This document shows, one piece after another, positions 12,616-19,622 of a stretch of DNA of 64,000 nucleotides; within the stretch, counting starts at the first letter, position 1, and each line of letters starts with the position of its first letter. Below the pieces are notes generated by a model. That model made no database searches. It was given only the letters and a program-made list of their open reading frames with translations, and had not been told where the DNA came from. The stretch covers positions 143,990 to 207,989 of the forward strand of contig NZ_WASO01000009.1 in NCBI RefSeq assembly GCF_009712605.1, given 5' to 3'. Source of the stretch: Paludibacter sp. (lineage in GTDB: Bacteria > Bacteroidota > Bacteroidia > Bacteroidales > Paludibacteraceae). The position numbers and the translations under genes were made by a program.

Positions 12616-13518
12616 ATGTATAATCTAAATAGCATTCCAATTGTCAAATATGATAATTTCTTAAAATCAAAACATATAACATGGAGTAGTGTTGGAGGTC
12701 GAGTTGAAGATTATCCGCAATATGACTTTGGAGACAGTATTATATGCAATTTTGATGAGAGGTTCAATTTGATTTTTTCTTTTAGATACTATGACAATAA
12801 AATATATTTGGTTCTGAAATTCAAGCCAAAGGATTACAAACTAAATATCAATGACAGTGTAAATTTTCTTTTTGAAAATGACACACTATTAAATTACACA
12901 ATATCTAATGAGCCTTATAAAGGAGGAGTATATTACGAGTCTGATGGCTCCAAATCTACATTTGTCAATTATTTTGAAACACTAATACAAATTAGCATGT
13001 CTGATTTAGAGATATTTTCAACTTATAAATTGTGTAATTATGCTCTCAATCTAAAATCATACAAGCTCATTGGAGGAAATAGAGAAAATGGCGCTTTTTG
13101 GCATGCAGGACGTAACTATAACAGCAATGATCCTATTAAAAGTAAAGCTGTATTTCAAGAAGCATTAAGACTATTTGCCTCAACATTTATAGATGTAATT
13201 AATCAAGAAGTACCAGATTATATTGAAACGACGATATCTTCCACTGATGAGACCTGCTATGTTTATCTTATGCATGATCTAAAAACCAATTTCTACAAAA
13301 TCGGTATTTCAAATAGTCCTTCATATAGAGAGAAAACATTGCAAAGCGAAAAACCGACAATTATTTTAATGCGTTGCAAGCGATTCCCCAAACGAAAAAT
13401 TGCCGAAATACTGGAAAAAACTTTGCACAGTACGTATAGTAACAAACGAATAAGAGGAGAATGGTTTTCTCTTGATACAGAAGACACAAATGACATTTCT
13501 CAAATTTTAAATGACTAA
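12616..13518 (+). CDS. Protein with a novel N-terminal domain (~215 aa) fused to a C-terminal T5orf172/GIY-YIG-type nuclease domain
   Basis: The C-terminal CYVYLMHDLKTNFYKIGISNSPSYREKTL...AEILEKTLHSTYSNKRIRGEWFSL matches the T5orf172 (MUG113) GIY-YIG pattern. The gene is strongly AT-rich. Confidence 0.55.
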   Translation: MYNLNSIPIVKYDNFLKSKHITWSSVGGRVEDYPQYDFGDSIICNFDERFNLIFSFRYYDNKIYLVLKFKPKDYKLNINDSVNFLFENDTLLNYTISNEPYKGGVYYESDGSKSTFVNYFETLIQISMSDLEIFSTYKLCNYALNLKSYKLIGGNRENGAFWHAGRNYNSNDPIKSKAVFQEALRLFASTFIDVINQEVPDYIETTISSTDETCYVYLMHDLKTNFYKIGISNSPSYREKTLQSEKPTIILMRCKRFPKRKIAEILEKTLHSTYSNKRIRGEWFSLDTEDTNDISQILND

Positions 13519-13879
13519 TAAAAAGCAGAATATGGAACTTAAAGATTTCATCAAAGAGACTTTAGCACAAATTACAAATGGTGTGGTTGAAGCACAAGAG
13601 CTAATTAAAAACACTGGTGCTTACATTAATCCAGAGGGTCGTCTCGAAGGCAATCAAGTTAGAACTGGTTTCGAAGGAGAATACAGATCTATTCAAAACG
13701 TAAAAATGAGTATTGCCGTCAAGGTTATCGAGAATACTCAAACAAAAGCAGCATTAGGAGTAGTCTCTGCATTTATAAATGCCGGAGCAGCAACCGCAAA
13801 CTCAGATTCCAACAGCGTAACGAACAGAATTGAATTTGAAATTCCTATTAGTCTACCAATTACGAATGTTACAAAATAA
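13511..13879 (+). CDS. Small trypco2-like protein, translationally coupled to the upstream gene
   Basis: The start overlaps the upstream stop, as ATGACTAA. MELKDFIKETLAQI ... IAVKVIENTQTKAALGVVSAFINAGAATANSDSNSVTNRIEFEIPISLP resembles the trypco2 consensus (L.DLI...L ... FWVV.LGAKG...ATHRVKLSL.P). Confidence 0.4.
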   Translation: MTNKKQNMELKDFIKETLAQITNGVVEAQELIKNTGAYINPEGRLEGNQVRTGFEGEYRSIQNVKMSIAVKVIENTQTKAALGVVSAFINAGAATANSDSNSVTNRIEFEIPISLPITNVTK

Positions 13880-13901
13880 GCACCATTGCTGGTGCTCTTT
13901 T
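13880..13901 (+). terminator. Intrinsic terminator after the two-gene operon
   Basis: GCACCATTGCTGGTGC hairpin followed by TCTTTT. Confidence 0.5.
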
Positions 13902-13954
13902 GCAAAGCGAGCCCGAGTCATATACATAGCGAAGCATTAGTGAACAGTACCCTA

Positions 13955-14212
13955 ATCAGGGAAACGCCTGACAGCGTTTAGCTCTGTATTGCGAGTCTTC
14001 CACGCCCCGATGAATCGGGGCGTTATTATTGGACAACGGCTACGCCGTTTTGTATCTGCATAATGTATGAGCACACTAAAGACAAAAGAACAACACAAAG
14101 ACTGACAGACTAAACGCCATCAGGCGTTACCTGTGAATAACCTCCGGATTCATCCGGGGGAAAAGACAGCGAATAGAAGCGACTGAACGCTGTAGGCGTT
14201 CCCCTAAAACAA
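13955..14212. repeat. REP/BIME-like structured repeat block, copy 1, upstream of the RAYT gene
   Basis: It contains short palindromes AACGCCTGACAGCGTT, CGCCCCGATGAATCGGGGCG, AACGGCTACGCCGTT, AACGCCATCAGGCGTT, CCGGATTCATCCGG and AACGCTGTAGGCGTT. The whole block recurs at 14668-14900 at roughly 75-80% identity. Confidence 0.55.
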
Positions 14213-14218
14213 CCAACC

Positions 14219-14665
14219 ATGAACAGCTACCGGCAAATTCTCTATCACATTGTATTCTGCACTTATAACCACGAAAACGCTCTTCCGGAAACAATGCATG
14301 AAGACCTTTATCGTTACATTTGGGGCATCGTCAAAAAGCGAAATTGTGTCCTATATCGGGTTAATAGCACCGAAAACCATATTCATATTCTATCTGACCT
14401 CCATTCAAGTATCTCGCTGGCCGATTATATCAAAGAGATCAAAACTGCCACCAACCGATGGATAAAAGAGAGCAGACAGTGTCCCAGTTTCATCTCGTGG
14501 GCAGACGGATATTGCGCTCTGACGTATACCTATCGCGATAAAGAAATGATTCTGAATTACATCAAAAATCAGAAGGAGCACCACAAAAAAACCAATTTTG
14601 AGGATGAATACAAAGCACTCCTCAAAGAGTTTGGTATAGAAGCTGACGAGAAATATATCTTCTAA
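14219..14665 (+). mobile_element. IS200/IS605-like Y1 (HUH) transposase, REP-associated tyrosine transposase type (RAYT, tnpA_REP)
   Basis: The ORF is 148 aa. The HUH motif is NHIHILS, and a catalytic Tyr sits in the YIKNQKEHH context (Y..NQ). It is flanked by REP-like palindrome blocks rather than IS ends. Confidence 0.7.
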
Positions 14666-14667
14666 GT

Positions 14668-14900
14668 TCTCAGGGAAACACCTAACGGCGTTTTGATTCT
14701 TTATTCCGGCTCTCTTCCACCACGATAAATCGGGGCGTTATTCACAGGCAACGGCTATCGCCGTTTTATTAACCCATAGATAATGCAGGAACAAAAAAAC
14801 AATGCCATCAGGCATTGCCTGTGAATAACCCTAGGATTCATCCAGGGGAAAAGAACATGAGCAAGCGTGACACAACGCTGTAGGTGTTAACCTATCGGAT
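14668..14900. repeat. REP/BIME-like structured repeat block, copy 2, downstream of the RAYT gene
   Basis: It is a direct-orientation copy of 13955-14212. Stems are maintained by compensatory changes, for example AACGCCATCAGGCGTT becomes AATGCCATCAGGCATT, and AACGGCTACGCCGTT becomes AACGGCTATCGCCGTT. Confidence 0.55.
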
Positions 14901-14990
14901 ATCTGGTGACAACAGCACTTCTATAATACGATTGCAGTACGATTCCAGCACATTGTAGCCCAATTCCATCCGCTTTTGCCCAAAAAATTG

Positions 14991-14998
14991 TATCTTTG
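14991..14998 (+). promoter_or_regulatory. Putative sigma-A -7 box TATCTTTG upstream of lysS
   Basis: It matches the Bacteroidetes TAnnTTTG -7 consensus 31 bp before the lysS ATG. The -33 TTTG is poorly spaced. Confidence 0.3.
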
Positions 14999-15028
14999 CG
15001 CCACTAATATTGACTGACTTATAAACCT

Positions 15029-19165: not shown

Positions 19166-19210
19166 TTCAGAATAAAGAGCAAAGAACAAAGAGTAAAGAT
19201 CTAAAACCAC

Positions 19211-19567
19211 ATGCACAATTTCAGGAATCTTGAAATATGGAAGAGATCAATTAGTTTAGTTACAGAAATATACAAACTAACAAATTCTTTTCCTCAACAA
19301 GAACGATACGGGCTGACTTCGCAAATGCAAAGAGCCGCAGTATCGTGTCCTTCAAATATAGCAGAGGGTTCTGCAAAATCAAGTAAAAAAGAATTTGCTC
19401 ATTTTTTAGAAATTTCTCTTGGTTCTTTGCTTGAATTAGAAACCGAACTTATTGTTTCATTAAATCTCGAATATGTTGATTCTGTTCGTTTTAATGAAAT
19501 CCAGACCAGTCTCATTGAACTTCAAAAAATGATTAACGGATTCAAAAATCATTTGGACAAGGAATAG
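19211..19567 (+). CDS. Four-helix-bundle protein (23S rRNA intervening-sequence protein / Avd-like family)
   Basis: FRNLEIWKRSISLVTEIYKLT...QMQRAAVSCPSNIAEGSAKSSKKEFAHFLEISLGSLLELETELIVS is characteristic of the family. The gene is AT-rich and flanked by imperfect inverted repeats. Confidence 0.6.
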   Translation: MHNFRNLEIWKRSISLVTEIYKLTNSFPQQERYGLTSQMQRAAVSCPSNIAEGSAKSSKKEFAHFLEISLGSLLELETELIVSLNLEYVDSVRFNEIQTSLIELQKMINGFKNHLDKE

Positions 19568-19622
19568 TCTCTGATTTTTGATTCTATCTTTATTCTTTTC
19601 TCTTTATTCTTTGTTCTAAATT

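Follow-up and report, generated by a model that had tools for sequence, protein, structure and literature searches.

Enzymes that combine an HUH (histidine-hydrophobic-histidine) motif with one catalytic tyrosine (Y1) were divided by Quentin et al. 2018 (PMC6006769) into class 1 (IS200 type, tyrosine motif Y-x3-Q), class 2 (the type of the REP-associated tyrosine transposases, RAYTs, where REP stands for repetitive extragenic palindrome; Y-x3-NP) and a smaller, separate class 3, which was described as a possible intermediate between insertion sequences (IS) and REPtrons. Subclass 1.2 of that survey, with hosts among Bacteroidetes and Cyanobacteria, comprises low-copy-number genes for proteins of 148 aa (median) with the signature YIKNQKEHH, the HuH consensus DH[IV]H and a specific C-terminal tail of ~30 aa; it was listed without REPs and, generally, without typical IS200-type terminal structures (PMC6006769). 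The automated REP search used there relied on descriptors of canonical hairpins with a GT[AG]G foot; manual inspection is described for classes 2.6 and 3 and for subclasses 2.1 and 2.3, and none is described for subclass 1.2 (PMC6006769). The survey left the function of the subclass open, a literature search returned no later paper on it, and the examined supplements of the survey contain no Paludibacter entry. Here we describe a gene with the subclass 1.2 signature (14219-14665, + strand) and four structured 93-nt modules around it in a 64-kb stretch of Paludibacter sp. DNA from contig NZ_WASO01000009.1 (hereafter the window, meaning the whole analysed stretch). We put the probability at about 0.6 that this locus represents a REPtron-like system that is based on an IS200-type enzyme, is present in few copies and is mostly passed on vertically, the modules most likely being the cognate single-stranded DNA sites of that enzyme.

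The 148-aa protein matches the Pfam family Y1_Tnp (PF01797, E 5.5e-21; HUH/Y1 fold with one catalytic Tyr) and barely passes the NCBIfam IS200 model NF033573 (56.5 bits, cut-off 55). When aligned with solved structures, it is best matched by IS608 TnpA (E 5.5e-6), ISDra2 TnpA being found as well. The IS608 alignment identifies the HUH motif as H54-I-H56 and the catalytic tyrosine as Y114 (in 'NYIKNQ'), and Y114 and Q118 align with the catalytic Tyr and Gln of helix alpha-D. Residues 114-122 read YIKNQKEHH (Y-x3-Q-x2-HH, the last two being H121 and H122). Among 19 diverse homologues H54, Y114, Q118, H121 and H122 are invariant, and H56 is present in at least 90%; N53, the first residue of NHIH at the HUH motif, is invariant as well. 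The C-terminal residues 123-148 are conserved in the family, with F127, E130, L135, E137 and E144 invariant in the same 19 homologues. A fold search with the AlphaFold model (predicted local distance difference test score, pLDDT, 72.7) ranks the IS608, ISDra2 and IS200 transposases first. The catalytic residues are thus intact, and the gene is under strong purifying selection. By its motif and its length, the protein bears the signature of subclass 1.2 of Quentin et al. and would be an HUH/Y1 nuclease-ligase of the IS200 class acting on single-stranded DNA. It shares with that subclass the size of 148 aa, the exact YIKNQKEHH, the low copy number and the Bacteroidetes host, and its conserved C-terminal residues may correspond to the subclass-specific tail; it differs in that the clade of the window has NHIH instead of DH[IV]H and possesses conserved end modules as well as dispersed doublets of them.

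The protein is 100% identical to the 'Paludibacter sp.' entry P0001 and has hundreds of homologues of 148 aa. With a 60%-identical relative as query, more than 2,800 protein clusters (at the 90% identity level) were retrieved, all of them 148-aa proteins of the Bacteroidota type without cyanobacterial members. The family is therefore large and very widespread, and its usual annotation is 'IS200/IS605 family transposase' or 'RayT'. The window contains one copy of the gene. No tnpB is present at the locus, and the space available is too small for a tnpB remnant. PADLOC gave no match for the Y1 protein or for the two open reading frames (ORFs) upstream of it.

The gene lies between two blocks of ~250 bp (13955-14212 and 14668-14900) that are direct copies of each other (79% column identity, two indels) and contain six hairpins each, as stated in the original prediction made from the sequence of the window. 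Folding of the blocks as single-stranded DNA beats that of shuffled sequences (z -7.5 and -5.4; 0/200 shuffles as good). A ~30-bp motif recurs in inverted orientation within each block, as also predicted, and each block in fact consists of two 93-nt modules of opposite orientation, giving the order module(-), module(+), gene, module(-), module(+). The two 250-bp 'direct repeats' arise because each side of the gene in this clade bears a second, oppositely oriented module. Within the window, the 12-mer CCTGTGAATAAC is confined to the blocks, with three occurrences (14130+, 14737-, 14818+; chance expectation 0.2), and the 10-mer GGATTCATCC is present only at chance level. A covariance model of the module (R1), which was built on 68 modules of other loci and used with filters off, recovered exactly four modules in the window, the next best match scoring 11 bits.

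The distal upstream copy (copy 1, 'rcM2') is located at 13958-14051 on the minus strand (68.1 bits, E 9e-13) and has hairpins at 13962-13979, 14002-14023 and 14035-14049 (DNA fold -24.0 kcal/mol, z -5.1) and a degenerate linker, TCCAATAATAAC on the minus strand. An A-rich spacer (14052-14110), which aligns weakly with the spacer of the right block, separates it from the gene-proximal upstream copy 2 ('M'; 14111-14205, + strand; 80.1 bits, E 2.5e-15). Copy 2 contains, on the plus strand, hairpin A (14113-14128), the linker CCTGTGAATAAC (14130-14141), hairpin B (14141-14160), a spacer and hairpin A' (14185-14201, loop TGTAG) followed by CCCC, and its predicted fold consists of exactly these three hairpins (z -4.3). 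Downstream of the gene, the proximal copy 3 ('rcM'; 14672-14767, minus strand; 63.2 bits, E 1e-11) is inverted relative to copy 2, with the linker at 14737-14748, a partly decayed hairpin B and a weak fold (z -2.1). The distal copy 4 ('M2'; 14799-14893, + strand; 63.5 bits, E 8.6e-12) has the linker at 14818-14829 and shows an A.A mismatch in hairpin B, and its hairpin A' has lost the outer pair. The inner modules, copies 2 and 3, are thus mutually inverted, and their A' hairpins lie 14 and 7 nt from the coding sequence.

Eighty metagenome loci encoding relatives of the Y1 protein (58-89% identity) were compared with the window. At most of them the gene is preceded by a module and followed by the reverse complement of it. 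Among the distinct gene copies with enough flank (n=69), 44 have a module on both sides, 11 on one side and 14 on neither side within 60 nt, and a Y1 gene is found no more than 500 nt away from 217 of the 249 distinct modules (note that the sample is gene-centred). The size of the unit is ~650-770 bp, and local arrays are frequent. The association of gene and module therefore extends across the protein family. In other lineages, sub-module units form tandem arrays beside the gene (L112 ~1726-1887, L105 67-539, L126 6453-7270, L159 4671-5908); examples are six 27-nt units (hairpin A plus linker), 62-nt units (hairpin A, linker, hairpin B) and three gene-less doublets with a 383-nt period, and the unit junctions fall at the AAC that is common to the linker end and the foot of hairpin A.

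On its own strand, the module has hairpin A first, joined to hairpin B by the 12-nt linker nYCYGTRMATAA; a spacer of 20-24 nt then leads to hairpin A' and nCCC. Hairpin A has the form AACNNN, loop GTA, NNNGTT, and A' is of the same type, whereas hairpin B is G+C-rich, with 8 bp and the loop TTYA. The GTA loop is found in hairpin A of 85 and in hairpin A' of 90 of the 140 distinct modules aligned; G-N-A triloops with a closing C-G pair form the classic DNA mini-hairpins of very high stability. The linker measures 12 nt in 138/140 modules, and its ATAA is essentially invariant. Conservation of the structure was analysed in two alignments, one of 68 gene-proximal modules (MAFFT) and the other of the 140 distinct modules from ~80 related loci, which were aligned to the covariance model and are hence biased towards it. 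Standard base pairs occupy 91.4% (68 modules) and 96.7% (140 modules, with this bias) of the stem cells, and 17/21 and 18/21 stem pairs, respectively, have changed on both sides. Cells with double changes number 231 in the 68 modules (67 +/- 9 after shuffling, at most 68 in slid controls) and 500 in the 140 modules (142 after shuffling, at most 107 in slid controls). Furthermore, all top 11 column pairs in a blind ranking by mutual information are predicted base pairs. The modules are thus conserved by structure with compensatory changes.

This strong compensatory evidence, which bears out the predicted selection on secondary structure, comes from other genomes. In the window itself, paired changes between the left and right stems were claimed to be several, which is an overstatement: a single clean double substitution is present (AACGCC/GGCGTT versus AATGCC/GGCATT, hairpin A at 14111 and 14799), and at the remaining differences only one partner has changed, to or from G.T, or the pair is broken (A.A in 14799-14893, C.T in 14672-14767).

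The window shares the arrangement msrAB ... Y1-lysS-gpsA-pgi with the related loci L001, L184 and L098, the flanking genes being 88-93% identical at the nucleotide level. Among these four syntenic loci, the ratio of nonsynonymous to synonymous substitution rates (dN/dS) of the Y1 gene is 0.04-0.07 at dS 0.5-1.5. The locus is thus inherited vertically. Paralogous modules inside the window are 78-79% identical and orthologous modules of the window and L184 (Microbacter sp.) 74-86%, so the four-module layout appears to be older than these species. In L192 the flanks are shared (lysS 93% identical) and the Y1 gene is missing. This is not an empty insertion site, as L192 retains the outer upstream module together with the initial bases of hairpin A of the inner one; judging from these remnants, the absence of the gene looks like a deletion.

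Copies of the module without the gene were searched for in a collection of species-representative genomes, to which the window's own genome does not belong, using the 22-nt pattern ATARCGCCCCGATTYATCGDGG that is specific to hairpin B of this clade. The scan returned 17 stretches, namely the L184 gene locus, with an orthologous Y1 gene (92.6% aa identity) and the identical four-module layout, eight gene-less doublets, the solo module of L192 and seven non-modules. A doublet of ~195 bp consists of module(+), 7 nt and module(-), each arm with its own conserved stems. The eight doublets originate from five Bacteroidota genomes, related members of the Paludibacteraceae, four of them from four contigs of one metagenome-assembled genome, and all eight are intergenic. 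With the element masked, only the flanks of L180 and L188 are homologous (87% identical), and the doublets therefore occupy at least seven independent sites. Gene-less doublets were also detected 6-10 kb from the Y1 gene in L005 and L106. The seven non-modules (Enterobacteriaceae, Terriglobia, Clostridia, Pedobacter) were discarded, as the covariance model finds no module in them; the matches in the four Enterobacteriaceae contigs (L179, L181, L183, L189) are probably a conserved unrelated sequence. In viral contigs the linker pattern gave ~90 matches, which were judged to be near chance and were not examined one by one, and the pattern of linker plus hairpin B gave two, neither of them a module; these scans suggest that the element is not phage-borne. 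Several of the doublets in L190, L188, L187, L180 and L182 lie 15-35 nt from ATGATTATCCGCATAAT, with GATAATCAT on the other side, and these sequences may mark a favoured target site or belong to a different repeat family.

Whole units have been duplicated too. L118 has two units (93% identical over 769 bp) and L136 a tandem pair (96.8%); only 2 of 88 loci carry two gene copies. The tandem doublets of L159 derive from the gene unit beside them by internal deletion, their arms being 92% and 99% identical to it. These deletion copies and duplications indicate that the element has moved and been amplified.

It is reasonable to regard the system as REPtron-like (RAYT- or REPIN-like) in its behaviour and as an IS200 relative in its ancestry, the RAYT serving as a functional analogy. 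As in the REPtrons of E. coli and Pseudomonas (RAYT or TnpA_REP, class 2, with repeats of the REP, BIME (bacterial interspersed mosaic element) or REPIN kind), a single Y1/HUH gene occupies a fixed, vertically inherited site, is flanked inversely on both sides by structured repeats of its own and is accompanied by gene-less inverted doublets in intergenic regions elsewhere. The IS200/IS605 elements (IS200, IS608, ISDra2; subclass 1.1) are closest by sequence and fold, with the same HUH, Y and Q residues. They also share the IS200-like unit size, hairpins at both ends, the occasional unit duplication and deletion derivatives resembling miniature inverted-repeat transposable elements. However, IS200/IS605 elements typically exist as several near-identical copies with a patchy, horizontal spread, whereas the locus described here is, in the sequence stretches compared, single-copy and syntenic across species, is devoid of tnpB and is under long-term strong purifying selection, its duplicates being rare and 93-97% identical.

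By analogy with the known enzymes, the Y1 protein would bind the module hairpins when the DNA is single-stranded, e.g. at replication forks. The module strand presents two AAC...GTT hairpins with GTA loops, the G+C-rich hairpin B and the near-invariant single-stranded linker, and the gene stands between two inverted modules with hairpin A' nearest to it. The enzyme may nick and rejoin the strand at the conserved linker or the CCY that follows hairpin A, or right beside them, and such reactions may occasionally move or amplify gene-less doublets and, more rarely, the gene unit.

Several observations weigh against this reading. Beyond the four modules of the locus, R1 found none in the 64-kb window, where the two modules to the right of the gene also show partial decay. 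Identity between the clade's dispersed doublets and the gene-flanking modules is only 56-72%, and the copies inside a single genome have diverged, so that recent mobility cannot be read from them. In assuming binding and cleavage by a subclass 1.2 enzyme, this reading follows the analogy of IS608 TnpA and E. coli TnpA_REP. The two ends on which IS200/IS605 enzymes act have their hairpins on the same strand, whereas the ends here are inverted copies with three hairpins each; the known mechanism is therefore not transferable as it is, and for a family believed to work on a single strand the inverted ends are mechanistically puzzling. Finally, mutual information between the linker and other unpaired positions gave no sign of guide-like covariation and reflected only the three helices and effects of neighbouring columns.

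The modules and doublets provide a candidate substrate for subclass 1.2 that can be tested with oligonucleotides. With an IS200-type enzyme and a REPtron-type genomic behaviour, the system stands between insertion sequences and REPtrons and therefore bears on the way in which selfish Y1 transposons become resident, vertically inherited systems. More tentatively, subclass 1.2 and its modules might constitute an unrecognised single-stranded DNA system that is widespread in Bacteroidota and inherited vertically. This would imply a second, independent origin of the REPtron lifestyle from an IS200-type ancestor; the enzyme would recognise a composite site (two GNA-triloop hairpins, a G+C-rich hairpin and a fixed 12-nt linker) and operate on opposite strands at the two ends, unlike any characterised HUH transposase; we regard this wider proposal as possible rather than probable.

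Alternatively, the enzyme may have been co-opted for a host function that has nothing to do with the modules; these and the doublets would be relics of an ancient insertion sequence. Vertical inheritance and the very low dN/dS fit such an origin, as do the age of the dispersed doublets (the orthologous flanks of L180 and L188 have diverged to the 87% identity given above), the divergence of their arms and the decay of modules in the window. Relics would not, however, keep 96.7% pairing, hundreds of compensatory changes and a linker fixed at 12 nt while the proteins are 58-90% identical, and local arrays and duplicated units with 93-99% identity point to activity that continues in some lineages. 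We therefore consider this explanation unlikely.

It is somewhat harder still to see the modules as RNA-level elements, i.e., a 5' leader and 3' terminators or stabilisers that resemble transposon ends incidentally. The module hairpins do score as terminator-like sites (6 found, 1.6 expected), and in the relatives hairpin A' lies near the start codon (12-18 nt) and the stop codon (~11 nt). The stems point in another direction: they contain G.T or T.G in 114 cases versus A.C or C.A in 24, and each of the four window modules folds better on the module strand than on its complement (by 1.4-2.3 kcal/mol), implying that selection acts on one strand. This strand is sense upstream and antisense downstream of the gene, so that one mRNA cannot hold both modules in folding orientation; this speaks for a function in DNA rather than in a single mRNA. 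Gene-less modules, moreover, are found in intergenic regions of varied gene orientation, and Rfam contains nothing relevant, either at the gathering threshold (whole window) or at a permissive E-value (13850-15000). An RNA function is thus improbable.

The original prediction had interpreted the gene as a RAYT (TnpA_REP, class 2) with a family of REPs or BIMEs. The single gene between inversely oriented palindromic repeats, the extragenic gene-less inverted doublets in relatives and the label 'REP element-mobilizing transposase RayT' assigned by JGI (the Joint Genome Institute) to many homologues would agree with this. The protein itself does not: its tyrosine motif is that of class 1 (Y-x3-Q, here with x2-HH) and not the Y-x3-NP of class 2, so the motif already contradicts the assignment. 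The E. coli RAYT structure 4ER8 is absent from the sequence matches to solved structures at E<=1 and ranks only 30th in the fold search, behind all IS200/IS605 structures. As to the repeats, they were rightly recognised as inversely oriented, structured and selected for pairing, but a REPtron repeat is a 20-40-nt hairpin with a 5' GT[AG]G tag, whereas the repeat here is a 93-nt module of three hairpins with a conserved 12-nt linker, and the arms of a doublet have unlike stems that are unable to pair with each other. CTGTAGG is indeed present in both blocks; its GTAG, which had been likened to the tag of REPs, is the GTA loop plus the closing G of a hairpin rather than a single-stranded 5' tag at the hairpin foot. 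The copy number seen is low as well: REPtron repeats number tens to hundreds per genome, while the exact pattern has 1-4 matches per related genome and the window has none beyond the locus. A bona fide RAYT is therefore very improbable. A mere local duplication or chance palindromes, with which the lack of a further copy in the window would agree, are already refuted by the architecture shared at most of the 69 gene copies in unrelated contexts, by the gene-less copies in other genomes and by all shuffle controls, which were exceeded. None of the three alternatives of RNA regulation, fossil ends and chance is as well supported as the reading of the modules as cognate substrates of the enzyme.

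Two further groups deserve comparison. The Y1 genes of subclass 2.6 and class 3, for which 'atypical secondary structures' are described (PMC6006769), and the TIRYT elements (Di Nocera et al. 2013) resemble the present gene in having flanking structures other than canonical REPs, with copies elsewhere in the genome. They belong to different protein classes, with 179 aa and YIH[QN]NP or 178 aa and Y-x4-Q, and TIRYT elements possess plain terminal inverted repeats and a helix-turn-helix tail, unlike the modules of the window.

The region between msrAB and the Y1 locus varies between close relatives. In the window (12616-13879) it contains a 300-aa ORF with a T5orf172/MUG113 domain and a 122-aa ORF of no known function, neither of which gave a PADLOC match; in L001 a DUF2971 protein and a 56-aa ORF are found instead. 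At 19166-19621, the window carries a 118-aa ORF (19211-19567) at the site of the L001 gene for a four-helix-bundle protein (PF05635, '23S_rRNA_IVP'). Compared with Microbacter sp. L184 this stretch is an insertion (456 nt versus 99 nt), and the ORF is bracketed by purine-rich/pyrimidine-rich inverted repeats (~19169-19198 and ~19587-19616).

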